A DNA stretch of 53,716 nucleotides from Minisyncoccia bacterium (GTDB taxonomy: Bacteria > Patescibacteriota > Minisyncoccia > Phycocordibacterales > UBA9973), in contig JBGATK010000001.1 in assembly GCA_044229265.1 (NCBI GenBank), positions 101,776 to 155,491 on the forward strand. Direction: 5' to 3'. Made by a program: the position numbers and the translations under genes. Positions 3,817 to 53,713 of this stretch are shown piece after piece. Position 1 is the first letter of the stretch. Each line of letters starts with the position of its first letter. The notes below the pieces were generated by a model, which saw only the letters and a list, made by a program, of their open reading frames with translations, made no database searches and was not told the origin of the DNA.

Positions 3817-3873
3817 AATAGGAAAAAGCTTTGGTTTTTTGGTTTTGATTGGTAAAATTAAAGAATACATTAA

Positions 3874-6006: not shown

Positions 6007-6033
6007 TTTGGTTAGAAAAATAAAAAAAATATT

Positions 6034-7167: not shown

Positions 7168-7577
7168 TGCGTTTTAAAGTTCCACAATTTTTAGATATAG
7201 AAGACAAAATTTTTGGGCCTTTTACTTTTTCCCAATTTATCTACCTTGCTGGCGGTGGGGCAATTTGTTTTGTTCTTTATAAATGGCTGGGGCTCACTAT
7301 TGGCTTTGTTCCTATACTACTTATCGGTGGTTTCTCAGCAGCACTAGTTTGGTATAAAATAAATGGCAAACCATTCATATACACAGTCGAAGCAGCAATA
7401 AAATATTTTTTTCAAACAAAATTATATATTTGGAAAAAAGCTGATGTCCAAAACAGAGCACAAAAAATAGAAATGGTTAGAAAAACTCCCACAGATGATA
7501 AAAATAAGGTAAAATTAGATAGTGGCAAGCTTCGTGATTTAGCTTGGTCGCTCGATGTGCTTGATTTAAAAAAATAA
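7167..7577 (+). CDS. PrgI/VirB3-like small membrane protein
   Basis: The N-terminus MRFKVPQFLDIEDKIFGPFTFSQFIYL followed by two TM helices matches the PrgI-family pattern. The gene lies shortly upstream of the VirB4-like ATPase. Confidence 0.6.
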   Translation: MRFKVPQFLDIEDKIFGPFTFSQFIYLAGGGAICFVLYKWLGLTIGFVPILLIGGFSAALVWYKINGKPFIYTVEAAIKYFFQTKLYIWKKADVQNRAQKIEMVRKTPTDDKNKVKLDSGKLRDLAWSLDVLDLKK

Positions 7578-7583
7578 TTTAAA

Positions 7584-8237
7584 ATGTCATTATTTGCAGA
7601 AAGAACTCAAGATTTTGTGCCCATCAAAGAAGTGCGTGATGGAATAATAGTCCTCAAAAATGGGGAACTACGTGCTGTTGTGCTTGCTAATTCTGTAAAC
7701 CTTTCACTTAAGTCCGAAGACGAACAACGTGCTACCATACTCCAATTCCAAAGTTTTTTAAATACTCTAGATTTTTATGTGCAAATATCCATTCAATCGC
7801 GCAGACTAGACATACGCCCATATCTAATACTGCTCGAAAATAGAATGAAGGTTCAAAATGAACCCCTTTTAAAACTTCAAACCAAAGAATATATTGATTT
7901 TATTAGAAATTTTACCGAATCAGTAAACATAATGACAAAAAACTTTTTTATTGTTGTTCCTTATAGTAATTTTTCTGGAAAACCAGGTGAAAGTGCTCTC
8001 AGTAAAATTTTCAAAAAAGAAAGTAAAGATATGAAAAAAGAATTCGAGCGTGCTAGTTTTGAAGAAAAACGTAGCCAACTCGAAGAACGTGTGTCTGTAG
8101 TCCAACAAGGACTGGCGCGCTGTGGTATCAAATCAGCCCAGCTTGGTTCTGCCGAAATAGTAGAAGTGTTTTACAAAGTTTTTAATCCAGGTGAACTAGA
8201 AGGTAAGATCGATTTAGATAAAATTAGCAATGTTTAA
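7584..8237 (+). CDS. hypothetical protein, resembles the N-terminal module of Gram-positive VirB4/TrsE proteins
   Basis: A segment (DFVPIKEVRDGIIVLKNGELRAVVLANSVNLSLKSEDEQ...FQSFLN) resembles the start of long VirB4-family proteins as I recall them. No NTPase motif. Confidence 0.45.
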   Translation: MSLFAERTQDFVPIKEVRDGIIVLKNGELRAVVLANSVNLSLKSEDEQRATILQFQSFLNTLDFYVQISIQSRRLDIRPYLILLENRMKVQNEPLLKLQTKEYIDFIRNFTESVNIMTKNFFIVVPYSNFSGKPGESALSKIFKKESKDMKKEFERASFEEKRSQLEERVSVVQQGLARCGIKSAQLGSAEIVEVFYKVFNPGELEGKIDLDKISNV

Positions 8238-8272
8238 TTGTTAATTCGCATACGATAACTTATAATTAAAAC

Positions 8273-10114
8273 ATGGGTCTTTTAGATACATTGCTAGGCA
8301 AAAAAAATGAAAACGCAAAGGAAGGTGATCCTTCTATTTTAGCTGTCTTACCGGAAGAAATTTACGAATCTGCAAAACTAGAATTGCAAGACGTCATAGC
8401 TCCTTCAGCTCTAAAGATTGGCTCCAAATCTATCGATCTTGGCGACAAGATTGCTCGTACTTTTTTTATCATATCTTATCCTCGTTATTTAGTAGACAAT
8501 TGGTTCTCGCCAATTATAAATTTAGATAAAATTTTTGATGTTTCTATTTTCGTGCACCCGGTAGATACCACGCTCGCACTTCGCCAATTTCAAAAAAAAG
8601 TTGCTGAAGTAGAGAGTCAAATAAATGAAAGTGAAAGCAAGGGCATGGTTCGTGACCCTATGCTAGACACAGCCTATCAAGACCTCGAAAGCCTGCGCGA
8701 CCAGTTAATACAAGCTCAAGAAAAAATGTTTGATGTGTCAGTCTATATCACTATCTACGCTGACAATGAAATGGAATTATTCAAAGTTGAAAATGAAGTA
8801 AAGTCTATCCTAGAATCAAAACTTATTTACATAAAACCAGCTCTTTTCCAACAAGAAGAAGGTTTCAAGAGTGTGATACCAATAGGCAATGATTTACTCG
8901 AAATAACTCAGAAATTAAATTCTGAACCACTTTCATCTATTTTCCCATTTATTTCTTTCGACTTAACCAGCGATAAAGGCATACTCTACGGTGTAAATCG
9001 CCATAATTCTTCACTAGTTATTTTTGATCGTTTTTCACTTGAAAATTACAATTCAGTTGTATTCGCAAAATCTGGCTCTGGTAAAAGTTATGCGATGAAA
9101 TTAGAAATCTTGCGTTCACTGATGTTCGATATAGATGTTATAGTTATTGACCCTGAACGTGAATACGAATATCTATCAGATGCAGTAGGGGGTAGATATT
9201 TTAACATTTCACTTTCTTCTGATCACCATATCAATCCTTTTGACCTGCCAATACCAAGAGAAGATGAAACGGCTGAAGATGTCTTACGTTCAAATATCAT
9301 AAACCTAGTAGGTCTTTTTCGTTTGATGCTAGGAGGACTTACTCCAGAAGAAGACTCACTGGTAGATCGCGCTATCTCAGAAACATATGCCATAAAAGAT
9401 ATCACCCCAGAATCAGACTTTTCAAATATTGAGCCTCCACTTCTTTCTGATTTTGAAATGGTCCTCTCAGGCATGCAAGGCTCAGAATCGGTAGTGCAGA
9501 GATTAGTGAAATACACCAAAGGGTCTTGGGCTACTTTCCTAAATCGACCTTCAAATGTGGATATAAATAAAAAATTCGTAGTTTTTTCAGTTCGTGATAT
9601 GGAAGACGAATTAAAACCAATAGCCATGTATATAGTCATGCACTATATATGGAATTCTGTGCGTAAAAACTTAAAGAAACGCCTATTAGTAGTGGATGAA
9701 GCTTGGTGGATGATGAAAAGTGAAGATACAGCTTCATTCTTATACTCTATGGCAAAACGCGGACGTAAATATTACTTGGGCCTAGCTACTATTACTCAAG
9801 ATGCTGCGGATTTTATGAAAAGCCCTTATGGCATACCTATTATTACAAACTCTTCTATTCAAATTCTCTTAAAACAATCACCGAGCACTATAGATATACT
9901 CCAAAAAACCTTCAACTTAACAGATGAAGAGAAATATTTATTACTAGAAAGTGGCGTAGGTGAAGGTATATTCTTTGCTGGGCTTAAACATGTGGCTATT
10001 AAGGTCATCTCATCTTATACCGAAGACCAAATAATTACTTCTGACCCCTCACAGATACTATCTATAAAAAAATCCAAAGAAGATTTTGAGAGTAGTGATT
10101 TGCAAAACAGTTAA
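8273..10114 (+). CDS. virB4: VirB4/TrsE-type type IV secretion ATPase
   Basis: Walker A AKSGSGKS, Walker B LLVVDEAWWMM, and the ATITQD segment typical of VirB4/TraG-type NTPases. Gene context is T4SS-like. Confidence 0.8.
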   Translation: MGLLDTLLGKKNENAKEGDPSILAVLPEEIYESAKLELQDVIAPSALKIGSKSIDLGDKIARTFFIISYPRYLVDNWFSPIINLDKIFDVSIFVHPVDTTLALRQFQKKVAEVESQINESESKGMVRDPMLDTAYQDLESLRDQLIQAQEKMFDVSVYITIYADNEMELFKVENEVKSILESKLIYIKPALFQQEEGFKSVIPIGNDLLEITQKLNSEPLSSIFPFISFDLTSDKGILYGVNRHNSSLVIFDRFSLENYNSVVFAKSGSGKSYAMKLEILRSLMFDIDVIVIDPEREYEYLSDAVGGRYFNISLSSDHHINPFDLPIPREDETAEDVLRSNIINLVGLFRLMLGGLTPEEDSLVDRAISETYAIKDITPESDFSNIEPPLLSDFEMVLSGMQGSESVVQRLVKYTKGSWATFLNRPSNVDINKKFVVFSVRDMEDELKPIAMYIVMHYIWNSVRKNLKKRLLVVDEAWWMMKSEDTASFLYSMAKRGRKYYLGLATITQDAADFMKSPYGIPIITNSSIQILLKQSPSTIDILQKTFNLTDEEKYLLLESGVGEGIFFAGLKHVAIKVISSYTEDQIITSDPSQILSIKKSKEDFESSDLQNS

Positions 10115-10142
10115 TATGTTATAATAGCAATATAATAAATAT

Positions 10143-11126
10143 ATGAATAAATTAGGAAAATTAAAAATTGTTTTTCTTTTGGCTTTAATATTTTCTCCAT
10201 TTTTTTCTTTTGCTCAGCTTCGTGTAGGTGATGTTGTTCTTACGATTTCACCTGAAAATCCAAAGGAAGGAGAGCAAATAACTGCGACACTTACTAGTTA
10301 TGCTACAAATTTAAATGTGGCTTATATTTCTTGGCTTACCAACGACAGCTTAGTTACTGAAGGGGTTGGTAAAAAAATCTTTTATTTTAATGCTGGGGAT
10401 TTAAATACTGACATAAATCTAACAGCACGCATAAATACCACAGAAGGTGATACTATTTTAAAAACTATCACCATATCTCCTACAGAGATAGATCTACTTT
10501 GGGAAGCTACTGATTCCTATGTGCCACCTTTTTACAAAGGCAAAGCTCTAATAGCACAAGAAGGAACATACAAAGTTGTAGCAATACCAAATGTATATTC
10601 TTTGGGTGGTAAAATAAATCCACTAAATCTCTCTTACACTTGGGTTAGAGACGGCACAGTATCGCAGAATTATTCTGGTTGGGGAAAAAATTATTATATT
10701 TTCAAAAATAGCTATCTAGAAAAAGAAAACGAAATAGAAGTAAGTGCAGTAGATATTTTAGGTAAAGTAAAACCTGTTGGCAAAACTACACTCGAAACAT
10801 TTACTCCTAAGGTAATTTTCTATAAAAAAAACCCAGAGTTTGGTTTGGATTTGAGTAAAGGCATACAAAATAACTATAATTTAGACAAAGAAGGTGAAAC
10901 CTTGGTAGCTGTACCTTATTTTTTCTCTCCTAAGAATCTAAATAAAGATGAATTAAAATTTGAGTGGACTATAGATGAGGATAGAATTTCAACTCCTACA
11001 AATAAAAACGAGATCAGTCTAAAAGGTGAAGAAGGGAATAGTGGAACATCTGTCATAAAACTTTTAATAAAAAATACTAAAACACTTTTTCAAGAGTTAG
11101 AAACAAGCATTAATGTCAATTTTTAA
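10143..11126 (+). CDS. secreted protein of unknown function
   Basis: Signal peptide (FLLALIFSPFFSFAQ) with beta-rich composition. Overlaps the next gene by 14 nt. Confidence 0.6.
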   Translation: MNKLGKLKIVFLLALIFSPFFSFAQLRVGDVVLTISPENPKEGEQITATLTSYATNLNVAYISWLTNDSLVTEGVGKKIFYFNAGDLNTDINLTARINTTEGDTILKTITISPTEIDLLWEATDSYVPPFYKGKALIAQEGTYKVVAIPNVYSLGGKINPLNLSYTWVRDGTVSQNYSGWGKNYYIFKNSYLEKENEIEVSAVDILGKVKPVGKTTLETFTPKVIFYKKNPEFGLDLSKGIQNNYNLDKEGETLVAVPYFFSPKNLNKDELKFEWTIDEDRISTPTNKNEISLKGEEGNSGTSVIKLLIKNTKTLFQELETSINVNF

Positions 11127-12045
11127 TAAAAAAAGAATAAGAAATATATTTCTAAGTATTATTATACTTTTTTCTATTACTTTTAGTTTTGCATATGCAC
11201 AAGAAAATGTTTTAAAAGGTAATAAAACTAAAGACACAAATGATACTTACAATTTACTTGCACCTTTTGGCGATAAACTAAAATCTTTCTCTACAGACAC
11301 AGAATGTGCCCTGACAGGTTATGTAAATATTATTTTTGATTTATTTATTGGCATTTGTGCAGTACTCGCTTTTGTAATGTTGGTAATAGGAGGAATTCAA
11401 TATATGGGTAGTGAGCTAATTTCCAGTAAAGAAGCCGCTAAAAGCCAAGCCACGAACGCTATATTAGGCCTCCTAGTCGCTTTTTCTGCTTGGCTAATAC
11501 TAAATACCATAAACCCAAAACTACTAGATTTTTGTTTAGATAAGAATTTACCGAATGTAGAAATCTCAGCAGAAACTCACGAAGAAACTCTAGGTGTTGA
11601 AGGTAAAAATGCCGTATTGTTTAATGGTCAAACTTTAACAGCTTGTAATCCTGCAGATATTACAAAAATAAATTTTATGGGTAAAGAAATAGAAGTAAAT
11701 AAAGCTGTAGCGTCTGAATTAAATGAAATAAATAAAGAGTGGCTTTTTACCGTAGATCCTGAAATAAAAAATTATAAAATAGACACTATTTATGGTTATG
11801 TTTGTAAACATGTTAAAGATCAACCTACTAAAACTTCAGCTCATTCATTTGGACTTGCTTTAGATATTAATCCTGGCCAAAATCCATACACAAAATCAGG
11901 ATGCCAAACAAACATGCCTCCTAGTTTTGTGAGATTATTTACATCCCGTGGTTGGGGTTGGGGAGGCAATTGGTCAAGCGTTAAAGATCCAATGCATTTT
12001 AGCAAATTAAGCACAGAAACAAGGGGTAATGCTCCTTGTCCATAA
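11113..12045 (+). CDS. fusion of a TrbC/VirB2-like pilin module and an M15-family peptidoglycan peptidase
   Basis: Signal peptide, then two hydrophobic helices flanking a short polar loop (AVLAFVMLVIGGIQYMGSE...ILGLLVAFSAWLILNTI), which is a VirB2-like layout. The C-terminal half carries SAHSFGLALDINP and WGWGGNW...DPMHF, the zinc-ligand motifs of M15 (VanY/endolysin-type) peptidases. Confidence 0.65.
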   Translation: MSIFNKKRIRNIFLSIIILFSITFSFAYAQENVLKGNKTKDTNDTYNLLAPFGDKLKSFSTDTECALTGYVNIIFDLFIGICAVLAFVMLVIGGIQYMGSELISSKEAAKSQATNAILGLLVAFSAWLILNTINPKLLDFCLDKNLPNVEISAETHEETLGVEGKNAVLFNGQTLTACNPADITKINFMGKEIEVNKAVASELNEINKEWLFTVDPEIKNYKIDTIYGYVCKHVKDQPTKTSAHSFGLALDINPGQNPYTKSGCQTNMPPSFVRLFTSRGWGWGGNWSSVKDPMHFSKLSTETRGNAPCP

Positions 12046-15492: not shown

Positions 15493-15521
15493 TAATCCAC
15501 ATTATCAACAGGTTATCAACA
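15493..15521 (+). promoter_or_regulatory. three tandem DnaA-box-like 9-mers
   Basis: taatccaca (15493-15501), ttatcaaca (15502-15510) and ttatcaaca (15513-15521), each one mismatch from TTATCCACA. Located in the rpmH-dnaA spacer. Confidence 0.6.
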
Positions 15522-15563
15522 TAATTGGAGTATAAATAAGATTTTAAAAAAGAGTTTAGATAG

Positions 15564-15569
15564 TATAAT
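15564..15569 (+). promoter_or_regulatory. -10 element (TATAAT) of dnaA, 7 nt before the ATG
   Basis: tagTATAATcataccaATG. The spacing implies a leaderless or near-leaderless transcript. Confidence 0.5.
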
Positions 15570-15576
15570 CATACCA

Positions 15577-16917
15577 ATGGATACAAAACAACTTTGGAAT
15601 AACTGTTTACAAGCATTTGAAGCAGAGGTATCTAAGGCAAATTTTAGCACTTGGTTTAAAAACACATCTATCGTGAAAGACGAAGAGGGGATAATACATA
15701 TCGGTGTACCAAATGAATTTGTTCGTGATTGGCTAAAGCATAAATATCATAAAATGATCACCAAGAATATTGCTGATTTGTATGAAAACATGCGTGCGGT
15801 AGAGTATGTGATAATAAAACTAGATCAAAATAAAGAAAATGTTGATAAAAAGGTTGAAAACTTTTCAAACGAAGAACTTCCACTAAAAGATCTATATATA
15901 AACCCAGATGATAATCTAAACCCTAGATATAGATTTGATACTTTTATCGTTGGTGGTTTCAACGAGCTCGCTTACGCAGCTACTCAAGCTATCATCGATT
16001 CTCCTGGCACTAAATACAATCCATTCTTTATTTATGGTGGCACAGGTCTTGGAAAAACCCACCTTATTCAGGCAGTAGGGAATGCTATAAAAGAAAGACA
16101 CCCAAACAAAAAAGTAAATTACATTACTTTAGAAAAATTTGCTACTGATTTTATAAATTCCCTTCAAGGAAATCGGGCTAACTCTTTCAAAGAGAAGTAT
16201 AGAAAGTACGACCTTCTAATAATTGACGATATTCAGTTCATAGGGAAGATGGAAAAAATACAAGAAGAACTTTTTCACACCTTTAATACTTTTTATGAAA
16301 ATAATAAGCAAATTATCTTTTCTTCTGATAAACACCCGAACCATATTCCAGAGCTCGCAGATCGTCTAAAATCACGTTTTGCTCAAGGAATGATAGTCGA
16401 CGTAGCTGAACCGGAATTTGAATCCAGGCTCGCAATTTTAAAGGTAAAAACCACAGAACAAGGTGTTTATTTAGATAAAGAAATTTTAGAATATATTGCA
16501 TCTGTAATTCGTGGCAACATAAGAGAACTTGAAGGAAGTTTAAATACAGTGGTTTGCCAATATAAACTCAAGAAGAATATATCTCTAAATGAAGTAAAAA
16601 ATATATTAAAAAATAATATCAAACCTAAAAAAACGGTTGCTATAAAAGATGTAGTAAAGACAGTTAGTGATTATTACAACATAGAAGAATCTTCAATATA
16701 TGATAAAACCAGAAGAAAAGAGATAGTAAAAGCTCGCCAAATAGTTATGTTTATCCTGCGAGAAGATTTTAATGTGTCTTATCCTCTCATAGGTCAAAAA
16801 CTAGGAGGAAAAGATCATACTACTGTTATCCACTCATACTTAAAAATAAAAGAAGATATGGCAGCAGACCCAGAGTTATCCCAAGAATTAGAACAAATAA
16901 GAATTATGTTTAAATAG
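15577..16917 (+). CDS. dnaA: chromosomal replication initiator DnaA
   Basis: Walker A GGTGLGKTHL, Walker B LLIIDDIQF, sensor and box VII region, and a C-terminal DNA-binding helix (GGKDHTTVIH). Confidence 0.97.
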   Translation: MDTKQLWNNCLQAFEAEVSKANFSTWFKNTSIVKDEEGIIHIGVPNEFVRDWLKHKYHKMITKNIADLYENMRAVEYVIIKLDQNKENVDKKVENFSNEELPLKDLYINPDDNLNPRYRFDTFIVGGFNELAYAATQAIIDSPGTKYNPFFIYGGTGLGKTHLIQAVGNAIKERHPNKKVNYITLEKFATDFINSLQGNRANSFKEKYRKYDLLIIDDIQFIGKMEKIQEELFHTFNTFYENNKQIIFSSDKHPNHIPELADRLKSRFAQGMIVDVAEPEFESRLAILKVKTTEQGVYLDKEILEYIASVIRGNIRELEGSLNTVVCQYKLKKNISLNEVKNILKNNIKPKKTVAIKDVVKTVSDYYNIEESSIYDKTRRKEIVKARQIVMFILREDFNVSYPLIGQKLGGKDHTTVIHSYLKIKEDMAADPELSQELEQIRIMFK

Positions 16918-17155
16918 CTGTGGATAAAGGTGTAAAAAACAAGTAAAAGTATTTAATAAAACTGTTTATAAATAAAAATAATTGTGTATAAAAAAATAGT
17001 AATAAATTATAGTGTGCATAAAAGTAAGTTTATTAACTTTTTTAAAAAAATAAAATATTAAAAAAACATTATTAAATAAGATTAAAAAAAGTTTTCCACT
17101 TATCAACAGGGCTAATAGTAGTAATAAATTATATATATAAATAATAAACAAAAAT
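16918..17155. other. candidate oriC / DNA-unwinding region (dnaA-dnaN spacer)
   Basis: Extremely AT-rich 238-bp spacer. Bounded by a perfect DnaA box (tgtggataa, 16919-16927, reverse orientation) and ttatcaaca at 17100-17108 next to ttttccact. Confidence 0.6.
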
Positions 17156-18253
17156 ATGAAACTAGAATGTGATGTAGAAAAAATTAAATATGCTATTAAT
17201 CAAGTAGAAAAAATTACAGGAAAAAATTTAACTCTACCTGTTTTAAACTCAATACTTATAATTGCAGGGAGTAAAGGTTTAAAATTACGTTCTATGAATT
17301 TATCTCTAGGGGTTGAGGTTGAAATACCAGCAAAAATAGAAAAAGAGGGTATTTTAGCTATTACAGGTAGTGTTCTTTCTCAAACATTTTCAAACATTTT
17401 TCAAAAGGATTCTATTTCGCTTGAAGGTGAAGATGGTAATTTAATTATTAAAACAAAAAGAAATAAAATAAAATTAAAAGGTCAGCCATGTGAAGATTTT
17501 CCAACTATACCTTCAGTAGAAGGGTCTTCTTTTGAAGTTGATGCAAAGAAATTCACAGAAGGTATAAAGTCGGTTTATTACAGTGCGGCTTCATCAGATA
17601 TAAAACCAGAGATTTCGAGTGTATGTATTTATTCTGGAGACAATGAATTAATTTTTGTTTCTACTGATTCATTTAGATTAGCTGAGAAAAAAATTAAGTT
17701 AAAAATTAACGAAGAAATTGGAAAAATTTTAATTCCATATAAAAATATTAGTGAAATAATTAGAATTTTTGGTGAAGTTAGTGGGGATTTAAAAATTTTT
17801 TATAATAAAAATCAAATTTCCATAACACACAATAATGTTTACTTAACCTCTAGGATTATAGATGGAGCTTTTCCAGATTATGGGCAAATAATTCCAAAGA
17901 CAAGTAATACTGAAGTTGTTGTTTTAAAACAAGATCTTTTAAATGCTTTAAAATTATCAAATATTTTTGCTGATAAGTTTAATCAAGTTAGTTTAAATAT
18001 TAATCCAAAAGAAAAAATATTTGAAATATCTTCTTTTAGTAATGAAATAGGTGAAAATAAAACAGCATTAGATGCTTCTATGAAGGGTGATAATGTAGAG
18101 CTTTCTTTTAATTATAAATATTTCTTTGATTGTTTTTCTTCTGTAAATACTGATAGCTTGTCTATAAAAATAAATGAACCAATAAAGCCTATAATAGTAA
18201 ACCCAGTAGGAGATAATTCTTTTATTTATCTTATTATGCCTATGAATAAATAG
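17156..18253 (+). CDS. dnaN: DNA polymerase III beta sliding clamp
   Basis: 365 aa, directly after dnaA. C-terminal YLIMPM motif typical of beta clamps. Confidence 0.92.
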   Translation: MKLECDVEKIKYAINQVEKITGKNLTLPVLNSILIIAGSKGLKLRSMNLSLGVEVEIPAKIEKEGILAITGSVLSQTFSNIFQKDSISLEGEDGNLIIKTKRNKIKLKGQPCEDFPTIPSVEGSSFEVDAKKFTEGIKSVYYSAASSDIKPEISSVCIYSGDNELIFVSTDSFRLAEKKIKLKINEEIGKILIPYKNISEIIRIFGEVSGDLKIFYNKNQISITHNNVYLTSRIIDGAFPDYGQIIPKTSNTEVVVLKQDLLNALKLSNIFADKFNQVSLNINPKEKIFEISSFSNEIGENKTALDASMKGDNVELSFNYKYFFDCFSSVNTDSLSIKINEPIKPIIVNPVGDNSFIYLIMPMNK

Positions 18254-18257
18254 TTTT

Positions 18258-18515
18258 ATGATTGAAATAAAAGACTTATTAAATTCTTTTAAAGAAGTTC
18301 TTCTGGGGGAAGAAATTCGTAAAGAAAAAATAGCTTTTATTATTGAAAGTGTAACAAAAATAAAAATAGAAACTAAAAACATAGAGGTTAAAAACAGTAA
18401 GGTTATTTTAGATATAAAGCCAATTTTTAAAAATGAGGTTTTTCTAAAAAAAGAAAAAATATTAGAAGAATTTAGGAATAATTTTTCCAAAAGAGTTCTA
18501 ACAGATATTCTTTAA
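18258..18515 (+). CDS. small hypothetical protein
   Basis: 85-aa Lys/Glu-rich ORF starting 5 nt after dnaN. No motif recognised, and coding status is not assured. Confidence 0.4.
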   Translation: MIEIKDLLNSFKEVLLGEEIRKEKIAFIIESVTKIKIETKNIEVKNSKVILDIKPIFKNEVFLKKEKILEEFRNNFSKRVLTDIL

Positions 18516-21050
18516 TTAATATACTTTAAATAAAATATTAGTTTCAGTTTTATTGTAAACACTGTCATATACTATTACACGTAAATCATTCTCATCTTTT
18601 AAATTATCTATATTTGATAAATTTATATTGTAATAAAGTGGTGTGTTTACGGTCTCTAAATATATACCATTTATAAATACATCCATTTTTGTAATTGGAA
18701 ATTTTCCACTAGCCTGCACATTTACGTTTATTGAACTATTTTTAGCGTAGGTTGAGTCTGTATTAGGTTCAATGATATTTACTGTGGGCTTGTTGTATTC
18801 TGTGTGAACATCATCATAACCAGTTGGTTTTTGTGATCCATCGTTTATATTGTATTTATATTTATTTTTTTCCCACCAGTCTTGAATAGGAGTATTCCAA
18901 TGTTCATACTGGGCATTGCTTGTAGGATTTGTGGGTGCTGGTCCGAGGATATTTTCTCTATCAACCCAATAAAGAATAGATTTTACATTTGTAATAGTTT
19001 TTTCTTCAAGTGTTTCTTTTGGTGTTAGTTCTGTGGCAAGTTTACCTGAAATTTTATCTATAAAATAACTTTCACCACCTTGCCATATGCCACGGATAGC
19101 TGGTTTTGTGTTTTTAATATCATTTACAAGATCTGGTTTTTCAAATTGTTCTTTTGGTACTACTTTTAAGGCTTCTTGCATGAATTTATTCCAAATAGGC
19201 CCAGCGAGAGCTGAACCACCTTTTTTCATTGGTTTATTATCATTGTTTCCAGCCCAAACACCGGCTACTATAGTAGGACTATAACCTATAATCCAAGCGT
19301 CTTTATTGTTGTTAGTGGTACCAGTTTTAGCTGCTACATCATAACCAGGTATATAAAGAGGGGAGTTCGCTCCAAAAGTAGGGATTCTGGCTTTATTATC
19401 ACTTAAAACGTCTGATACGGTTAGTGCTACATTTTTTGATAAAACCTCCTGTTCTTGTTGTTTGTATTCTTCTAAAATTTCACCGTTATTATTTTCAACT
19501 TGAAGTATGCCAGTATAAGGATTTTTAATTCCATTGTTTGCAAAAACACCATATGCCGAAGTCATTTCTATTAATTTAGCTTCACCACCTCCTATGACTA
19601 GCGTTAATCCATAACGACTACGATCTTTTAGTGTGGTAATACCTAAATCTTCAGCCATATTCATTGAGTCATTTGTGCCAGCAAGATAAAAAAGCTTAAC
19701 AGCTGGTATGTTTATAGATTGAGCGAGTGCATCACGTAAACTCATTGGACCACGAAAAGCATTATCATAATTATCTGGGCTATAGCAATCTTTCTGATTT
19801 TTACCAGGAAGTGCTTTGCCATAAACAGTACATCCAGTGTTAAATTCTGTTGGCACATCAAAAAGAACTGTGTCTGGAGTGAATCCCTTTTTAAAAGCAG
19901 TAGCATAAATAAATGGTTTAAAAGAAGATCCTGGCTGTCTGTCAGCTGTGGCTATATTAAAAGCACCATCAATTTCTTTATCAAAATAGTCGCGTGACCC
20001 TACCATTGTCAAAATTTGACCTGTTTTAGGGTCAATAGCGACAAGTGCAGCATTTGATCCACCCCAGTCTTTTTCATTTTTTAAAGCGCCTTCTTTCACT
20101 ATTGTTTCTGCTTTTTGCTGAAGTTCCGCATTAAGAGTTGTAATTACTTTTAATCCACCATTTTCAATAACTTCAACGCCGTATTTTTCTTCTAAGTATT
20201 CACGTATAAAAAATACAAAATGTGGAGCTTTAATCCCACTATTTGCAAGAGGTTGAAAGACAACATTTTCATTTCTAGCTTTTTCATATTCTTCAGTATT
20301 TATAATACCTAGCTCTTTCATTCTAGAAAGGACTAGATTTTTCCTTTCATCTAAGCGACCCTTATTTTTACCGTAAGGAGAAAGTACGGTTGGGGATTGT
20401 GGTATAGCAGCTAAATAAGCTGATTCACCAAGAGTTAAATCCGCTGCATTTTTATTAAAGTAAGTTTTACTTGCTTCTTCTACTCCATAAATATTTCCTC
20501 CATATGGAGCTTCATTTAAATAGAAAGCTAGTATTTCTTCTTTTGAAAAAACTTTTTCTATTTTTATGGCTAGAATCCATTCTTTTATTTTTCTAGTATA
20601 AGTCTTTTTCTGTGTTAATAGGGTATTTTTTACAAGCTGTTGGGTAATAGTTGAACCACCTTGAGTTTTACCCACACCAGTAATGTTTGCTAAAATAGCT
20701 CGTAGTATAGATAGAGGTCTAATTCCTTTGTGTTTATAAAATTCAGCGTCTTCTATAGCTATGGTTGCATTTTTTACATTATTATTGATTTTGTCAAAAG
20801 GAACAATTGTTCTTTTTATATCTTGATGTATATCAAAAAGTAATATTTCTCCTGTTCTGTCATATATTTTAGTAGAACTTGAGATTTTACGCTCTTCAAA
20901 AGAAGAAAAGTCAGGTATTTTTAATGTAGCTAGATAAATTAAGGTTAAAGCAATGAGTAAAATAGCACCTCCTGTCAAAAATAACATTAAATTTCTAAAG
21001 TAGTGTTTGTTGTTTTTTCTCTTTCCAAATACACGATGAATTTTTTTCAT
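18516..21050 (-). CDS. bifunctional class A penicillin-binding protein (glycosyltransferase + transpeptidase)
   Basis: GT51 motifs EDAEFYKHKGI, GGSTITQQL and RKIKE. Transpeptidase motifs SSFKP (SxxK), SIN (SxN) and KTGTT. N-terminal TM anchor. Confidence 0.9.
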   Translation of the reverse strand: MKKIHRVFGKRKNNKHYFRNLMLFLTGGAILLIALTLIYLATLKIPDFSSFEERKISSSTKIYDRTGEILLFDIHQDIKRTIVPFDKINNNVKNATIAIEDAEFYKHKGIRPLSILRAILANITGVGKTQGGSTITQQLVKNTLLTQKKTYTRKIKEWILAIKIEKVFSKEEILAFYLNEAPYGGNIYGVEEASKTYFNKNAADLTLGESAYLAAIPQSPTVLSPYGKNKGRLDERKNLVLSRMKELGIINTEEYEKARNENVVFQPLANSGIKAPHFVFFIREYLEEKYGVEVIENGGLKVITTLNAELQQKAETIVKEGALKNEKDWGGSNAALVAIDPKTGQILTMVGSRDYFDKEIDGAFNIATADRQPGSSFKPFIYATAFKKGFTPDTVLFDVPTEFNTGCTVYGKALPGKNQKDCYSPDNYDNAFRGPMSLRDALAQSINIPAVKLFYLAGTNDSMNMAEDLGITTLKDRSRYGLTLVIGGGEAKLIEMTSAYGVFANNGIKNPYTGILQVENNNGEILEEYKQQEQEVLSKNVALTVSDVLSDNKARIPTFGANSPLYIPGYDVAAKTGTTNNNKDAWIIGYSPTIVAGVWAGNNDNKPMKKGGSALAGPIWNKFMQEALKVVPKEQFEKPDLVNDIKNTKPAIRGIWQGGESYFIDKISGKLATELTPKETLEEKTITNVKSILYWVDRENILGPAPTNPTSNAQYEHWNTPIQDWWEKNKYKYNINDGSQKPTGYDDVHTEYNKPTVNIIEPNTDSTYAKNSSINVNVQASGKFPITKMDVFINGIYLETVNTPLYYNINLSNIDNLKDENDLRVIVYDSVYNKTETNILFKVY

Positions 21051-47421: not shown

Positions 47422-47615
47422 ATATTTTTTGATTAAAACCCACGCCAAAGGCGGGGTAAATTGCTAATAAACTTTGATTTATAAAGTTGAAATAGTAAAA
47501 CTCACTTCCACTTATTTCCCAGGGAGTATATCATTTTTTGTTAAAAAAGTCAAGACCTAGCTCAAAAATATAATATCTTAGATATTTATAGTGTATTTGG
47601 AATTTTTGCACAATG

Positions 47616-47687
47616 TGCTCTCGGCAGGAATCGAACCTGCATCATAACTTCCGCAAAGTTACGTCCTATCCATTGAACGACGAGAGC
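47616..47687 (-). tRNA. tRNA-Arg (anticodon GCG)
   Basis: Manual fold: acceptor GCTCTCG/CGAGAGC, D arm GTTC-AATGGATA-GGAC, anticodon stem TAACT/AGTTA with loop TTGCGGA, T arm GCAGG-TTCGATT-CCTGC. Confidence 0.85.
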
Positions 47688-47690
47688 ATG

Positions 47691-47930
47691 TTAATGTATT
47701 TTATTTTTTAAATATCTTCTACCTGCTGCACTTTTCCAATACCTTTCTTTTTTTACTGCCTCATCTCTTTCTTCACATATCTCATAATATATTATTTTAA
47801 AAGGAATGAAAGCTTTGTTCGATTTTGTTATACCCCTATTGTGTTGCTCTAAACGTATTTCCAAATTCTCACAAAACCCTTTGTAATAAAAGTCTGCAAC
47901 TGTGCTTTTTAATACATAAACATAATACAT
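47691..47930 (-). CDS. small GIY-YIG nuclease-family protein
   Basis: MYYVYVLKS...YKGFCENLEIRLEQHN fits the GIY-YIG pattern (Y-x-YVL ... Y-x-G). ATG 47930 is preferred because the upstream 18 codons of the track ORF read through a tRNA-derived repeat and hairpin. Confidence 0.78.
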   Translation of the reverse strand: MYYVYVLKSTVADFYYKGFCENLEIRLEQHNRGITKSNKAFIPFKIIYYEICEERDEAVKKERYWKSAAGRRYLKNKIH

Positions 47931-47935
47931 GTGTT

Positions 47936-47998
47936 GCGTCCTATCCCCGCCCGAACGACTGACATCGTTCAGTCGGGCGGGCATTGAACGACAAGAGC
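47936..47998 (-). pseudogene. partial duplicate of the tRNA-Arg 5' segment, split by a 35-nt G+C-rich hairpin
   Basis: 47937-47946 plus 47982-47998 match tRNA positions 1-27 (47661-47687) at 26 of 27 nt. The insert 47947-47981 folds into a stem of up to 9 bp (cccgcccga / tcgggcggg). Confidence 0.8.
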
Positions 47999-48037
47999 AA
48001 TATTAAAGAGAATAGCAATTTGTAGGAAAAAGTAAAG

Positions 48038-48897: not shown

Positions 48898-49070
48898 GGG
48901 TCTGTCTTAAGGATGTCTATAATTTTTATTTTTTGTTATATCTGACTATAATTTATGTCAGGTTTTCTGCGGTGTGTATTGGACGAAGTTCGAATGTATT
49001 TCGGACAAAATCCGCAGGATTTTGACGAATGATGCGGACTGCGCCTCGCACGCTCGCTCCGCTCGCGATC

Positions 49071-49174
49071 CCAAAACCAAAAATTTCCTTACAATTCCTC
49101 TTTCGGCGGGGGGTGTGGGGGGAGCCGGCAAAAAATGGAAAGGAAAATTTTTGGTTTTGGTTCCGACGCTTCAT
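49071..49174 (+). repeat. left copy of a ~100-nt palindromic element (G-run on the plus strand)
   Basis: Arms ccaaaaccaaaaatttcctt (49071-49090) and aaggaaaatttttggttttgg (49140-49160) flank ggggggtgtgggggg. The core 49117-49174 is the reverse complement of 53603-53660 at 57 of 58 nt. Confidence 0.9.
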
Positions 49175-49480
49175 TCCTCCAGAAAGGACTTGTATTTATA
49201 TTCTAGCATTGTGGCGATATTTTGTCCGTCCTTTCCTCCGTCATTCGCATCGGTGCGAGGCGCTCTCCGTATCCGCGTCTTGTGGTAGTTCTAGAGTCCG
49301 CTCACACTTCGTAACCACCTCGCATAGGCCGTTCGCATTCGCTCACGATGCCTACTCGGTGTTTGCTTCGTGTTTGCTCTGTGACTTCGTCCGAGCTTGT
49401 CGTAACTCTAAAAAGCGGATTGTGCTGAGGCACAAACAAGTTTATATATGTGCTTGCCCCACCCACCCAATGCGCGCACA

Positions 49481-49505
49481 GAAAACCACCCGCTAACGCG
49501 AGTGG
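49481..49505 (-). terminator. intrinsic terminator of the TM-TIR operon
   Basis: An 8-bp stem (ccacccgc / gcgagtgg, one mismatch), a 4-nt loop, and on the minus strand a following TTTT. It begins 6 nt after the TIR gene stop. Confidence 0.55.
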
Positions 49506-49510
49506 CTCCC

Positions 49511-50179
49511 TTACACCTCTTTTGCTATCTCAAAGTGATCAAGATTGCTTTGATGTTCAGCAACATGATCTAAATGACTATTTATATTCTCAATGAAATC
49601 ACTCCACTTGACTGGGTGAATGTATGAATGATCACCGCCTGTATGGTGTGTTCCTCCACAAGTTGAACAACGAATCAAATTCTTATTATTTCTATTAAAC
49701 ATATTATCACCAAGAATCTTGAAGAGTGAACCAGTATTCCAACTGGTAACACAATTATAGTGATTAACGATATATGAGTAACTACCATTTTCGTCTGGCA
49801 GTGCGACTGCCAACATAGCATTGGTTCCACTCGTTCTGCCATCTCTGGTTATTTCTTTAAGAGAATATGAAATTTCCCATGGAATCCATTGATCATCTTC
49901 GGGCGTTAAAGGATCTCTCATTCCTTTAGAAATCAAAACTATCGTGGTCGAACTATCCCAAATTTTGTCTCTTAAATTTGATGCAATTGTCTCATCCTTG
50001 AAGTTACTCATATCTTCTCCGTCATCCTCACCTTTGTTTATATGATCATTTACATCTAAAAGTGCTTGCAAGGCATCAACATAATGTCGTGCAGTTGTCG
50101 TGTTTAACAAACCAACATTTTGCAATCTTTGTACTTGTGAATCACCGTATTTATAGCTAATAAAAATCTTTCTTGCCAT
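49511..50179 (-). CDS. ThsB-like TIR-domain protein (DUF1863-type)
   Basis: RKIFISYKYGD start, TTIVLIS strand, and WIPWEISYS with a candidate catalytic Glu102. This layout parallels Bacillus ThsB (KRVFFSFHYQD ... RWVRYEI). The C-terminal part carries C-x2-C and a His cluster. Confidence 0.78.
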   Translation of the reverse strand: MARKIFISYKYGDSQVQRLQNVGLLNTTTARHYVDALQALLDVNDHINKGEDDGEDMSNFKDETIASNLRDKIWDSSTTIVLISKGMRDPLTPEDDQWIPWEISYSLKEITRDGRTSGTNAMLAVALPDENGSYSYIVNHYNCVTSWNTGSLFKILGDNMFNRNNKNLIRCSTCGGTHHTGGDHSYIHPVKWSDFIENINSHLDHVAEHQSNLDHFEIAKEV

Positions 50180-50183
50180 ATAT

Positions 50184-50573
50184 TTATAGTATTAAAATAA
50201 TAATATGAACTGCTAATAGTCCACCATAAAATGCGACTAAGGTTCCAGAAGTAGCACAACTAAACCAATTACCGCCATCATTACACGCTTTAGTTTTCAT
50301 TAAAAAATCAATCTCATTTTCAGATTTTTCTGCTGTGCGTTCGTAAAGCTCTCGAAATCTTTTTTCTTGGTCGAGATAGTATCCATCAAGTAACCAGAAG
50401 AGAGTCAAAATTAAAAAAGAGATTAAGACAAAACGGCAATCGAGTTCTTTGAAACTAAATGCGAGTAATGCACCAACAACGGTTATAGCCCATCCTTTTA
50501 AAAGGAAAGAGTTATTTGCCATTCTGTTAATGGCTGTTTGTATAAATTCAAGATGTTTTAATTTTGCTTCCAT
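50184..50573 (-). CDS. 129-aa three-TM membrane protein, candidate effector partner of the TIR protein
   Basis: N-terminal amphipathic helix (LEFIQTAINRMANNSFLLKGW), then helices AITVVGALLAFSF, FVLISFLILTLFWLL and LVAFYGGLLAVHIIILIL. It ends 4 nt before the TIR gene start. Confidence 0.65.
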   Translation of the reverse strand: MEAKLKHLEFIQTAINRMANNSFLLKGWAITVVGALLAFSFKELDCRFVLISFLILTLFWLLDGYYLDQEKRFRELYERTAEKSENEIDFLMKTKACNDGGNWFSCATSGTLVAFYGGLLAVHIIILIL

Positions 50574-50596
50574 AATTTCTGTGGATAATCTATGCT

Positions 50597-50625
50597 TTGC
50601 TTTTCGGCTTTTATTCGGTTATACT
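50597..50625 (+). promoter_or_regulatory. promoter of the LexA-methyltransferase gene in the divergent control region
   Basis: TTGCTT (50597-50602), a 17-nt spacer, then TATACT (50620-50625). This leaves a ~27-nt leader, unlike the leaderless core genes. Confidence 0.5.
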
Positions 50626-50658: not shown

Positions 50659-52239
50659 ATGTCAAACCTTACGAAAAAGCAAAAAGAAGTCTTTGACTTT
50701 ATAAACTCCTACTTATCAGAGAATGGTATCGCTCCAACCATCGAGGAAATACGAAAAAAGCTGAAATTAAAGGCGGTTTCCACTGTTCATGAGCATATCA
50801 ATTCCCTGAGAGAAAAAGGGTATCTTTCAAAATCAGATAATTCAGCAAGAAACCTAACGCCTAAGAAAGAAATTAAATCCGTTATTGAGATTCCTATACT
50901 CGGAAGTATTAAAGCGGGATATCCGTTGCCAGCAATAGAAGAGAGAGACGGTTTTGTTTCTGTTATAAATCCACAAATCAAAACTGCAAACGGACACTAC
51001 GCTCTTCGTGTTGTTGGAGATTCAATGATTGATGACGGCATATTTGACGGAGACATTGTTGTTATTAAACATCAATCAGTTGCAGAAAATGGACAAACTG
51101 TTGTCGCGATAATTGATGACAACGAAGCAACTTTAAAAAGGTTATATAGAAAAGGAAAAGGTTTTGAACTTGTTCCAAGAAATCCTAATATGCCAACCTT
51201 GTTCAGAACTGATGTTGAAGTTAGGGGTGTTGTTGTTCAAGTAATAAGCAATCCTACAAATGAACCGACACAGGAAATTAAAAAGAACAAGACAAAACAT
51301 GGATTTAGGACAATAGATCTTTTTGCCGGTGTTGGTGGTATTCGCATAGGTTTTGAGAATGCAGGTTTTAAGACTGTTTTTGCTAATGACTTTGAGGCTT
51401 TGTGTCGTGATACTTATGATTTGAATTTTCGTGATTCAAAGTTAGTTGTTGAAGATATTAGAAAAATAGGAATTGACGATCTTCCTGAATTTGATTTTCT
51501 TTTAGGAGGCTTTCCGTGCCAAGCGTTTTCAATCGCTGGTTATAGACAAGGATTTAATGATGAGAAAGGAAGAGGAAATCTGTTTTTTGATGTCGCACGA
51601 ATTATAGACAAAAGAAAACCGGAAGGTTTTTTGCTAGAAAATGTAAAAAATTTAAAAAGTCACGATGGCGGAAAAACCTTCAGAATTATTGAAGAAACAT
51701 TGAGAGATCTTGGATACCATGTAAAGACAAAAGTTTTAAACACAATGGAGTATGGCAATGTTCCGCAAAATCGTGAGCGTATTTATATTGTCGGGTTCAG
51801 AAATAAGCTTTACCATGACAGATTTGAGTTTCCAACACCAGTAAAATTAAATGTAAAAATCACAGATTTACTTGAGGAAAATGTGCCTGAAAAATACTAT
51901 TACAATGGGAAGCCTTTGTTCGAAAAATTAAAGGGTTCAGTAAAAGAATATGGGAAAGTTTATCAATGGCGCAGACAATATGTTCGTGAGAATAAAAGTG
52001 GCGTCTGTCCGACATTAACGGCAAATATGGGAATGGGTGGACACAATGTTCCAATTATTAAAGATAAAAAAGGTATAAGAAAATTAACTCCTTTAGAGTG
52101 TTTTAGAATTCAAGGCTTTCCCAAAAATTACAAGCTTCCAAAAATTTCTGATTCTGCACTATACAAACAAGCAGGTAACTCGGTGAGTGTTCCTGTTATT
52201 GAAGCGGTTGCAAAGGAAATGATGAAAGCAATGCAATAA
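50659..52239 (+). CDS. fusion protein: full LexA-type repressor (wHTH + S24 peptidase) joined to a C5 DNA cytosine methyltransferase
   Basis: LexA part: wHTH APTIEEIRKKLKLKAVSTVHEHINSLREKGYL, cleavage site Ala86-Gly87 (GSIKAGYPL), Ser122 (VVGDSM), Lys160 (ATLKRL). MTase part: motif I DLFAGVGG, IV GGFPCQAFS, VI ENVKNL, VIII QNRERIYIVG, IX RKLTPLECFRIQGFP, X GNSVSVPV. One ORF with no internal stop. Confidence 0.85.
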   Translation: MSNLTKKQKEVFDFINSYLSENGIAPTIEEIRKKLKLKAVSTVHEHINSLREKGYLSKSDNSARNLTPKKEIKSVIEIPILGSIKAGYPLPAIEERDGFVSVINPQIKTANGHYALRVVGDSMIDDGIFDGDIVVIKHQSVAENGQTVVAIIDDNEATLKRLYRKGKGFELVPRNPNMPTLFRTDVEVRGVVVQVISNPTNEPTQEIKKNKTKHGFRTIDLFAGVGGIRIGFENAGFKTVFANDFEALCRDTYDLNFRDSKLVVEDIRKIGIDDLPEFDFLLGGFPCQAFSIAGYRQGFNDEKGRGNLFFDVARIIDKRKPEGFLLENVKNLKSHDGGKTFRIIEETLRDLGYHVKTKVLNTMEYGNVPQNRERIYIVGFRNKLYHDRFEFPTPVKLNVKITDLLEENVPEKYYYNGKPLFEKLKGSVKEYGKVYQWRRQYVRENKSGVCPTLTANMGMGGHNVPIIKDKKGIRKLTPLECFRIQGFPKNYKLPKISDSALYKQAGNSVSVPVIEAVAKEMMKAMQ

Positions 52240-53322
52240 CTATTTTATGTATTGCTTTATAGACTCCAACATGACGTCCTCTTTACTAGGTATTCTATCG
52301 ATAACGGACTTATGCATAAAATACTCCTCACCATTATTTGAAGAACGATCTAATAGTTGGAACTTAATAATATAGGTTTTATTTGCTTCCAGAACCACAT
52401 TATTTATAGTGGCTCTACCTGTTGTTGTTATGGTAATAGAGCTTTTACTATTTTTTACAAAATGAATATTTTGAATGTCGTCAATATAAACATCTAGTAT
52501 TTTGTGTTTGTTATTTTTGTCTAACAAATTATTATTCCAACTGTATAAATTGTTACTATTTTTTGTTAGATAATTAGATAAGGGTGTTGTAACTGTGGTG
52601 GTTCTTGCAGTTCTAGTTTCATTTACTTCTTTTACATAAATTGGACTTTCATTTGAGGAGCAAAGAGTTGAAAAAGACATAAAATCTTTTGCTGAACAAA
52701 CTGTTATGAGTTTTAGTGAGCCTAAATCCGTATTCTTTCTATTAATTTTTGTAACGGAAGATAAGTCATTGTTAGCATTAGATTTTATAAAAATACTATC
52801 GTCCATTTTAAGTTTGTTATAAACATCTTCACTGAAGACTGTTTGTTCAAAAAAAGGCAATAAGTAATCGCTATCAAGATTTGTTTCAACCATGACAAGA
52901 TATTTATTGTCGTATCCTTGGTTCCTTAAACTAACCATGTACTGCGCTTTTTTGAAGGATTTTACCTCAATTTGCGGTGCATTATTCAATGCTTGCCATT
53001 TATTTACATATTCAACAAAGGGCTTAGCATCTTGACCAGCTCTTATACCAAGTACATCAGGGGCTATGCCTGATTTCTTTGGGTCATACTCATAATAGTC
53101 AGAAATGACAGATAGATTATTTGCTATTTTGGGCAAAAAATATTTGTTGAAAATTACACTTTCGGGAATTATATTTATCCAACGATCAAAAACCCCTCCA
53201 ATATAATCACTTTTTCCACTAAGACCCCCATACATCCTACCTCGTTGAGCCATTGAGCACACAAAATAGATGTACGGAACAACATCTTGCTTAGTAATTA
53301 TAATTTCGTGGTTATGATTCAT
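52240..53322 (-). CDS. putative type II restriction endonuclease (PD-ExK)
   Basis: APDVLGI ... QIEVKSFK gives a PD-(x)n-E-x-K arrangement. The gene is convergent and abutting the methyltransferase gene (the stops are adjacent), and is preceded by a C-protein gene with a 1-nt gap. Confidence 0.6.
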   Translation of the reverse strand: MNHNHEIIITKQDVVPYIYFVCSMAQRGRMYGGLSGKSDYIGGVFDRWINIIPESVIFNKYFLPKIANNLSVISDYYEYDPKKSGIAPDVLGIRAGQDAKPFVEYVNKWQALNNAPQIEVKSFKKAQYMVSLRNQGYDNKYLVMVETNLDSDYLLPFFEQTVFSEDVYNKLKMDDSIFIKSNANNDLSSVTKINRKNTDLGSLKLITVCSAKDFMSFSTLCSSNESPIYVKEVNETRTARTTTVTTPLSNYLTKNSNNLYSWNNNLLDKNNKHKILDVYIDDIQNIHFVKNSKSSITITTTGRATINNVVLEANKTYIIKFQLLDRSSNNGEEYFMHKSVIDRIPSKEDVMLESIKQYIK

Positions 53323-53323
53323 G

Positions 53324-53545
53324 TTATTTCACGAAAAAATCCAAGGATTTTTTATAAAGTTTCGCAAACTCTTTGAGTTGCAAAACATCAAAGCGCCGTT
53401 GTCCCGATTCAATCTTTGAGACATACGACTGAGTTCTACCAAGTTTCTCAGCAACTTCAACCTGCCCAAGACCAACCTCAAGACGCGCTTGTTTCAAGCG
53501 CTCAACGATCTTTTTGTGGTCATTTTGGTAAATTGCTCTCGGCAT
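53324..53545 (-). CDS. XRE-type HTH controller (C) protein
   Basis: From ATG 53545: a 73-aa protein with LGLGQVEVAEKLGRTQSYVSKIESGQR (HTH_3/XRE pattern), immediately upstream of the endonuclease gene. The track's longer ORF reads through the poly-C tract and the repeat, and I reject it. Confidence 0.75.
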   Translation of the reverse strand: MPRAIYQNDHKKIVERLKQARLEVGLGQVEVAEKLGRTQSYVSKIESGQRRFDVLQLKEFAKLYKKSLDFFVK

Positions 53546-53602: not shown

Positions 53603-53713
53603 ATGAAGCGTCGGAACCAAAACCAAAAATTTTCCTTTCCTTTTTTTGCCGGCTCCCCCCCCCCCCCCCCCCCCCCACAATGACACGTAAAGAAAATTTG
53701 TTTTTTTGTTTGG
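53603..53713 (-). repeat. right copy of the palindromic element (C-run on the plus strand), inverted relative to the left copy
   Basis: The core 53603-53660 is the reverse complement of 49117-49174 (57/58). Arms at 53617-53638 and 53689-53713 pair with each other across the poly-C tract. Confidence 0.9.
53655..53676. repeat. 22-nt homopolymeric C tract
   Basis: Counted directly. The left copy has GGGGGGTGTGGGGGG at the equivalent position. Confidence 0.95.

Follow-up and report, generated by a model that had tools for sequence, protein, structure and literature searches.

A LexA–cytosine methyltransferase fusion as the probable modification enzyme of a mobile restriction–modification module in Patescibacteria

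Some Type II C5 cytosine methyltransferases (M.SsoII, M.Ecl18kI, M.EcoRII, M.MspI and M.ScrFIA) carry a DNA-binding module at the N-terminus. In M.SsoII-type enzymes this extension is a short, simple helix-turn-helix (HTH) that lacks homology to LexA, contains no protease and receives no signal. By binding to the promoter region of the restriction–modification (R-M) genes, it lets the methyltransferase control its own synthesis. Mobile elements can also sense host DNA damage through S24 repressors that cleave themselves in the manner of LexA, such as lambda CI and SetR of SXT, which are stand-alone proteins controlling lysogeny or transfer. To our knowledge, there is no Type II system whose methylase itself carries a signal-sensing, self-cleaving repressor. 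Here, we analysed a 53,716-nucleotide stretch of DNA (hereafter the window) from a Minisyncoccia bacterium (Patescibacteriota; contig JBGATK010000001.1, positions 101,776 to 155,491), in which one gene encodes a LexA fused to a C5 methyltransferase. Like the M.SsoII-type enzymes, to which we liken it functionally, the fusion has an N-terminal DNA-binding module on a Type II C5 enzyme, but the module comprises all 197 aa of a LexA whose Ala-Gly bond and Ser/Lys dyad are intact, and its predicted operator is the SOS box of the lineage. Because the N-terminal 197 residues are LexA, the fusion is not a member of the M.SsoII-type family. The parallel with CI and SetR is that a mobile element would sense damage through a LexA-like repressor; the difference is that the repressor is covalently part of the enzyme that it would regulate, and the element is an R-M cassette.

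The fusion gene (50659..52239, forward strand) starts with ATG and encodes 526 aa in a single reading frame with zero internal stops. Its first 198 residues scored 178.4 bits against the NCBIfam lexA equivalog TIGR00498 (cutoff 110.95), covering model positions 1-201 of 203, and the remainder scored 337 bits against TIGR00675 dcm (cutoff 101). When compared with PDB sequences, the protein matched M.HhaI at 7e-62 (residues 209-520) and LexA at 3e-30; residues 2-198 aligned end to end with the E. coli and T. maritima LexA structures (E ~1e-29 to 3e-31). The LexA winged-HTH (wHTH) DNA-binding domain spans aa 1-64 (50659..50850; full-length match to Pfam PF01726 LexA_DNA_bind, 1.2e-18), and its recognition-helix motif S41-T42-V-H44-E-H46 (STxHEH) is common to the fusions and to stand-alone Patescibacteria LexA, with T42, H44 and H46 invariant in both. 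The S24 autoprotease and dimerisation domain follows at aa 79-193 (50893..51237; PF00717 Peptidase_S24, 2.5e-28). Here the A86-G87 scissile bond (codons at 50914-50919) aligns with A84-G85 of E. coli LexA, the nucleophile Ser122 (51022-51024) with S119 and the general base Lys160 (51136-51138) with K156. A 19-aa linker, S197-G215 (SNPTNEPTQEIKKNKTKHG; 51247..51303), is the least conserved segment of the protein and leads into the C5 cytosine DNA methyltransferase domain at aa 216-522 (51304..52224; PF00145 DNA_methylase, 3.7e-91, model positions 1-323 of 324). Motifs I, IV, VI, VIII and X of this enzyme class are present in canonical order, as FAGxGG (222-227), PCQ (286-288, with the catalytic Cys287 encoded at 51517-51519), ENV (327-329), QNRER (370-374) and GNSV (506-509). 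A preliminary description, made from the sequence alone, had recognised every LexA hallmark in residues 1-~197, a linker of ~18 aa and all C5 motifs in the same reading frame; each of these statements was borne out, including the numbering of A86-G87, S122 and K160. The scissile bond and dyad are in register with those of canonical LexA (E. coli 1JHH/3JSO; T. maritima 3K2Z), and here too a box lies in the gene's own promoter. The fusion differs in its 310-aa C-terminal methyltransferase, such that cleavage would leave S24 and methyltransferase as one fragment, and in that it has no detectable regulon around the gene and travels with a restriction gene.

The fusion belongs to a well-populated family. 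Protein clusters were searched in a 5.8-billion-protein collection, and all of the best 120 clusters, which we inspected, had the same three domains (78-94% identity; 525-561 aa). A scan of one genome per species returned at least 537 relatives, and the best 80 of these loci were analysed, giving 853 kb of carrier DNA around 80 fusion genes (individual loci are cited below by L number). These 80 encode intact open reading frames (ORFs) of 521-529 aa with 68-97% identity, almost all in Patescibacteria metagenome-assembled genomes (Paceibacteria, Nomurabacteria, Moranbacteria, Uhrbacteria and others). Clustering at 50% leaves a single representative of the full-length fusion (P0121, 64%), so the fusion is one tight family; the closest unfused methylases are 55-60% identical. 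In an alignment of the 80 sequences A86, S122 and K160 are invariant, as are the FAGxGG, PCQ, ENV, QNRER and GNSV motifs, and G87 is present in at least 90%. Mean column conservation was 0.56 for the linker versus 0.80-0.92 for the domains, and the target-recognition region (~aa 401-470) was the most conserved segment (0.92). Judged by these alignments, both halves of the fusion are under purifying selection. A scan of viral contigs found relatives of the methyltransferase only and zero fusions, indicating that the fusion gene is not phage-borne. Regarding novelty, the preliminary description knew of no described methyltransferase with an S24 autoprotease as its regulatory module. Our literature search likewise found no publication on a LexA/S24–methyltransferase fusion, but the architecture proved to be common, being abundant in Patescibacteria metagenomes, and such proteins have already been deposited under the generic names 'transcriptional repressor LexA' or 'DNA (cytosine-5)-methyltransferase 1'.

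The upstream region suggests autoregulation. In the window, a promoter on the forward strand (50597..50625) consists of a -35 TTGCTT (50597-50602), a 17-nt spacer and a -10 TATACT (50620-50625), with the ATG 33 nt downstream. A direct repeat, TTCGG-N6-TTCGG (TTCGGCTTTTATTCGG; 50603..50618, forward strand), fills the spacer and is the predicted LexA operator; a dimer bound between the -35 and -10 would block RNA polymerase. A generic sigma-70 scan of the window did not list this promoter because its -35 matches merely 3/6, and the promoter call rests on the family consensus. From 78 distinct upstream regions, this consensus reads TGTGGATAAC - ~12 nt - TTGACT (-35) - TTCGG-N6-TTCGG-T (17-nt spacer) - TATAAT (-10) - ~30 nt - ATG. 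The repeat was found at the promoter in 73/80 loci, while elsewhere in the 853 kb there were just 13 matches, mostly degenerate; a position weight matrix scan of the window gave 28.7 bits at the fusion promoter versus 8.4 bits for the runner-up site. Next, metagenome contigs were scanned for the exact pattern. There were at least 120 sites, at least 79 of which precede a LexA-type ORF, and the sites listed include at least 36 full fusions, nine stand-alone LexA genes (197-208 aa; proteins 39-49% identical to the LexA half of the fusion) and one recA behind the same box. Given this occurrence in front of stand-alone lexA genes and a recA, the simplest reading of these sequences is that TTCGG-N6-TTCGG is the Patescibacteria LexA box and that the fusion retained its ancestral autoregulatory operator. 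It is a direct repeat with an 11-bp period, closer in type to the alphaproteobacterial GTTC-N7-GTTC than to the palindrome of E. coli.

A second element accompanies the operator. A perfect DnaA box (TGTGGATAA, reverse complement TTATCCACA; 50580..50588, forward strand) lies 14 nt upstream of the operator (23 nt from start to start), and it is one of two perfect copies in the window, the other being at oriC. Of 79 fusion promoters, 51 have a perfect DnaA box 19-23 nt upstream of the LexA box, measured start to start. In the promoters of stand-alone Patescibacteria lexA genes the DnaA box has the opposite orientation (TTATCCACA), and the recA promoter with the LexA box has no DnaA box. Promoters with both boxes were looked at in the window and in L004-L083, L114, L116, L100 and L145. 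Their arrangement suggests DnaA input into lexA-type promoters, and next to the operator of the fusion the conserved box may let replication status act as an additional input. Three further loci (L075 ~5923, L079 ~5965 and L185 ~1042) have the module of DnaA box, LexA box and -10 inverted and directed away from the LexA-type gene, which could reflect a divergent promoter or an inverted segment.

The gene downstream places the fusion in an R-M module. In the window, a 360-aa protein is encoded on the reverse strand (52240..53322), convergent with the methyltransferase gene with zero intergenic bases and no terminator between the two, and we regard it as the candidate restriction endonuclease. 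It contains a PD...EVK motif in which D89, E119 and K121 are invariant, and all of its 445 homologues are named 'hypothetical'. A tail-to-tail partner gene follows at a gap of ~0-7 nt in essentially every locus that extends far enough, and the partners fall into at least eight families without detectable mutual similarity: RE_Bsp6I-like proteins (26 loci), the 360-aa PD..EVK family of the window (15), RE_NgoFVII_C (10), PDDEXK_5 (9) and four smaller unannotated families. A nearly invariant methylase is thus combined with at least eight unrelated partner families, among them known endonuclease families. The gene upstream of the fusion differs in nearly every locus, large serine recombinases adjoin it in five loci, and inverted repeats flank the module in six (the window, L012, L018, L037, L138 and L147). 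In the window, the arms are 70 nt long and 94% identical (left, 49105..49174; right, 53603..53672, 44 nt before the window ends) and bracket a 4.4-kb defence and R-M segment containing a ThsB-like TIR gene, a PDC-M50A gene, the fusion, the nuclease candidate and an HTH gene. The last of these (53324..53545, reverse strand; 73 aa from the ATG at 53545) lies directly upstream of the nuclease gene in the same orientation and encodes a small HTH_3 protein (PF01381, 6e-12), a candidate controller (C) protein. A promoter-like TTGGAA-18-TATCAT at 53583-53554 is near its start codon, and its orthologue adjoins other partner genes in L122 and L037. This layout resembles that of C-protein R-M systems such as PvuII, AhdI and Esp1396I. 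The window differs from them in the weak match of the HTH_3 protein to the PADLOC Control_protein models (1.5e-4) and in that the methyltransferase gene has a separate regulator, predicted to be signal-responsive. Together with the predicted LexA box between -35 and -10, the R-M layout strengthens the earlier suggestion of an M.SsoII-like regulatory module.

The target was approached through the partners and through site avoidance. Bsp6I cuts GCNGC and NgoFVII cuts GCSGC, and in close relatives of the methylase RE_Bsp6I forms part of the same protein. The window contains 39 GCNGC sites versus 81 expected (0.48), making it the most depleted XXNXX palindrome, and in the pooled carrier loci there were 879 versus 1560 expected (0.56), the lowest of 19 palindromes tested. 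GTAC and the GCSGC subset were below GCNGC in the window alone, and GCSGC and GCWGC were both low in the carrier loci. From the partner families, the RE_Bsp6I fusions of its relatives and this depletion, which is the avoidance expected of a Type II R-M target, the methylase was assigned to GCNGC as its probable target. The module thereby resembles R.Bsp6I/M.Bsp6I and NgoFVII, although the partner in the window belongs to a separate, unannotated family. GCGC, the HhaI site and hence that of the nearest solved structure, was ruled out as target (observed/expected 1.00). As a separate observation, GTAC was strongly depleted in the window (53 observed versus 135 expected) with a ratio of 0.89 in the pooled carrier loci, which hints at a second, strain-specific restriction pressure.

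We therefore favour, with reasonable but far from complete confidence, the explanation that the fusion serves as the modification methyltransferase in a Type II R-M module that moves horizontally, that its gene (M) is autorepressed through a complete Patescibacteria-type LexA N-terminus, and that RecA-stimulated self-cleavage would derepress M; cleavage, binding and specificity are all predicted from sequence. The fusion would dimerise through the S24 domain, and its wHTH would bind its own operator, thereby fixing the level of M synthesis. On arrival in a naive cell, the module would express M without repression until the fusion protein has built up, providing early methylase. Upon DNA damage, including breaks made at unmethylated sites by the module's own nuclease (R), RecA filaments would stimulate cleavage at Ala86-Gly87, freeing residues 1-86 from the S24–methyltransferase body and opening the M promoter. 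Since the nuclease gene has its own candidate HTH controller and, in the window, no LexA box, derepression would raise the M:R ratio, in effect an SOS-coupled restriction alleviation or anti-autoimmunity loop. R could drop further still if transcription of derepressed M runs on into the R gene, which abuts it convergently. A higher M:R ratio would protect new unmethylated DNA during repair and damp self-restriction, and in this way the fusion probably ties self-protection against its own restriction enzyme to the SOS signal. The proposed outcome is that of Type I restriction alleviation after DNA damage, namely less self-restriction when repair yields unmodified DNA; in the Type I case this depends on ClpXP and proteolysis of the restriction subunit, whereas here it would come from transcriptional derepression of the methylase via self-cleavage. 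Because this box also precedes stand-alone lexA genes and a recA, the module is expected to engage in cross-talk with the SOS circuit of its host.

Several points weigh against this explanation. The direction of the response is its weakest step and is uncertain, because cleavage could destabilise the S24–methyltransferase body and so lower rather than raise methylation; E. coli LexA fragments are degraded after cleavage. The identity of the operator as a LexA site comes from co-occurrence. The 360-aa partner has no Pfam domain and no significant sequence match to a known nuclease in Pfam or PADLOC, and its structural model (predicted local distance difference test, pLDDT, 74) returned nothing at E <= 0.001 in a PDB fold search, in which weak matches to Hjc and EcoRV alone were seen, suggestive at most. 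Finally, the AlphaFold2 model of the fusion, built from a 31-sequence alignment, was too poor for use (mean pLDDT 58.7, with the S24 region <50).

The first alternative is that the fusion is the sole LexA of the organism and mainly its global SOS repressor, with the methyltransferase as a passenger or secondary function; it overlaps partly with the explanation that we prefer, because a shared box implies cross-talk. The LexA equivalog score fits it, as does the identity of the operator with the box of stand-alone lexA and a recA in other Patescibacteria. Fusions are also the commonest carriers of the exact promoter among the metagenome sites listed, with at least 36 full-length fusions versus nine stand-alone genes. 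As the preliminary description had noted, a search of the window's genes found no other LexA-like gene in its 53.7 kb, while uvrABC and ruvABC are present. However, a LexA regulon of DNA-repair genes was found neither in the window nor in the carrier loci. The repair and replication genes of the window comprise uvrB, uvrA, uvrC, ruvC, ruvB, ruvA, polA, fpg, dnaA and dnaN, and despite uvrABC, ruvABC, polA, dnaA and dnaN there is no second LexA box in the window; nor was there a second box elsewhere in the 853 kb of carrier DNA, including beside ruvA, fpg and polA in L001. Two carrier loci contain another complete, divergent LexA-like gene within 6 kb of the fusion. The hint that the fusion might be the cell's SOS master regulator is therefore unsupported in the window. 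The hardly ever conserved upstream neighbourhood and the partner swapped among at least eight families downstream fit a mobile R-M cassette. With a single box in the window and variable gene context, a cassette-borne controller that shares the host box is favoured over a housekeeping SOS regulator, which we consider unlikely.

Equally improbable, in our view, is that the LexA module acts simply as a dimeric DNA-binding autoregulator, like the N-terminal HTH of M.SsoII, and that no cleavage occurs in vivo, the catalytic residues having been kept by ancestry. HTH-mediated autoregulation does suffice for promoter control in known R-M systems, and a group of mini-LexA genes (121-128 aa; L108, L122, L133 and L150) shows that the DNA-binding part can act alone. 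These have the fusion-type promoter and wHTH and a truncated S24 without the Ala-Gly and Ser residues, and they are convergent with defence-type genes, either a 657-673 aa Schlafen-group-3 helicase protein with a C-protein orthologue, or a 317-aa gene with a separate C5 methylase. Yet the same genes indicate that the catalytic residues are readily lost when they are not needed, so their strict retention in the fusions, with A86, S122 and K160 invariant, is evidence that self-cleavage is selected. The residues are also intact in LexA fusions to other domains, which share the fusion promoter. These are a LexA with a D12-class N6-adenine methylase (L120:1374-2909, 511 aa; at least 120 clusters with this architecture), a LexA with an N6_N4 methylase (L130:3429-4961, reverse strand, and L188; 510 aa) and a LexA with an HTH_17 domain (L145:4894-5760), and the first two are likewise followed by an abutting convergent gene. 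A further locus among these LexA-box fusions is L212:6670-8205. In a rough neighbour-joining tree without support values, the C5- and D12-linked LexA domains were sister clades beside stand-alone LexA and the N4/N6-linked LexA domain was placed elsewhere, which suggests at least two fusion events plus domain exchange.

Still less probable is a damage-triggered suicide, in which cleavage would expose degrons on the S24–methyltransferase fragment, methylase activity would fall and the stable nuclease would kill the damaged or infected cell as a form of abortive infection. The module does sit within a small defence island with the TIR/PDC-M50 pair, and the fate of E. coli LexA fragments described above would suit this scheme. 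However, cleavage would also derepress the M promoter and so counter the loss of methylase, and the residues before the scissile bond are ...IKA here, as against ...VAA in the E. coli degron context. That adjacent lexA and dcm genes were merged by a sequencing frameshift or an assembly chimera can be practically discounted, since the uninterrupted ORF recurs in >120 independent protein clusters and in 80 genome loci that come from numerous studies and assemblers, linkers across the family are of conserved length and a separate 3-kb assembly encodes a protein identical to that of the window; the continuity between the two halves for which the preliminary description had sought confirmation is thus supported by conservation.

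The remaining surroundings concern the defence genes and the edges of the segment. Divergent from the fusion, on the reverse strand, are genes for a PDC-M50A membrane protein (50184-50573; PADLOC 2.8e-46) and a ThsB1-like TIR protein (49511-50179; PADLOC 9.6e-77), a candidate two-gene defence system on the basis of these matches; the pair also lies upstream of the fusion in L007 and L021. With just 7 nt between its start codon and the DnaA box, the pair must have a promoter that overlaps the region predicted to be under LexA control. The left arm of the inverted repeat is contained in a GC-rich non-coding element of 546 nt (48955-49500) with a strong predicted RNA structure (z = -4.74), for which Rfam gave no match either at the gathering threshold or at E <= 1. 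Its first 130-200 nt recur as inverted copies on the flanks of the R-M module in the window, L012, L018, L037, L138 and L147; the element may be a structured RNA or represent the terminal repeats of a mobile element that is non-autonomous. A tract of 21 C (G on the reverse strand; 53655-53677) lies at the right arm's outer edge, ~110 nt upstream of the HTH gene, and the window ends 39 nt after it. This tract, in whose place the left arm has G6TGTG6, may be prone to slippage or mark the end of an assembly. Further away, 18 nt from the 5′ end of tRNA-Arg(GCG) are directly repeated within 47615-47999 (47671-47688 and 47982-47999; 17/18 identical), with a GC-rich hairpin (47937-47990) adjoining the second copy, which may be a tRNA fragment from an integration event. 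The replication origin region (15493-17108) has DnaA-box clusters on both sides of dnaA (15577-16917), followed by dnaN, and AT content in the window peaks at 17000-19000 (GC 0.25). A type IV secretion-like set at 7167-12045 encodes a PrgI-family protein, a TraG/VirB4-like ATPase and a type IV secretion system pilin fused to an M15 peptidase, preceded at 745-7167 by large ORFs without a Pfam match.

An R-M system depends on a balance between methylase and nuclease, and a known price is self-restriction following repair or replication stress. If the model holds, the fusion would be a direct molecular link between the SOS signal, in the form of RecA filaments, and epigenetic self-marking, and a compact damage-inducible switch in one polypeptide. 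More broadly, and with a little less than even confidence, we propose that Patescibacteria have repeatedly fused the SOS sensor LexA to methyltransferases of mobile R-M systems (C5, D12 N6-adenine and N4/N6), keeping the LexA box on the M promoter. These would form an undescribed class of damage-sensing R-M systems, in which RecA-triggered self-cleavage retunes self-protection versus self-restriction and the shared box plugs into or hijacks the host SOS network. The three methylase classes, and one methylase with at least eight unrelated nucleases, make this a naturally occurring case in which modular exchange during R-M evolution can be studied. Two predictions follow from the analysis, namely that TTCGG-N6-TTCGG is the LexA box of Patescibacteria and that lexA-type promoters carry an unexpected DnaA box. 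If it holds, the model would also explain how the streamlined, repair-poor bacteria of the Candidate Phyla Radiation (CPR) tolerate promiscuous R-M cassettes.

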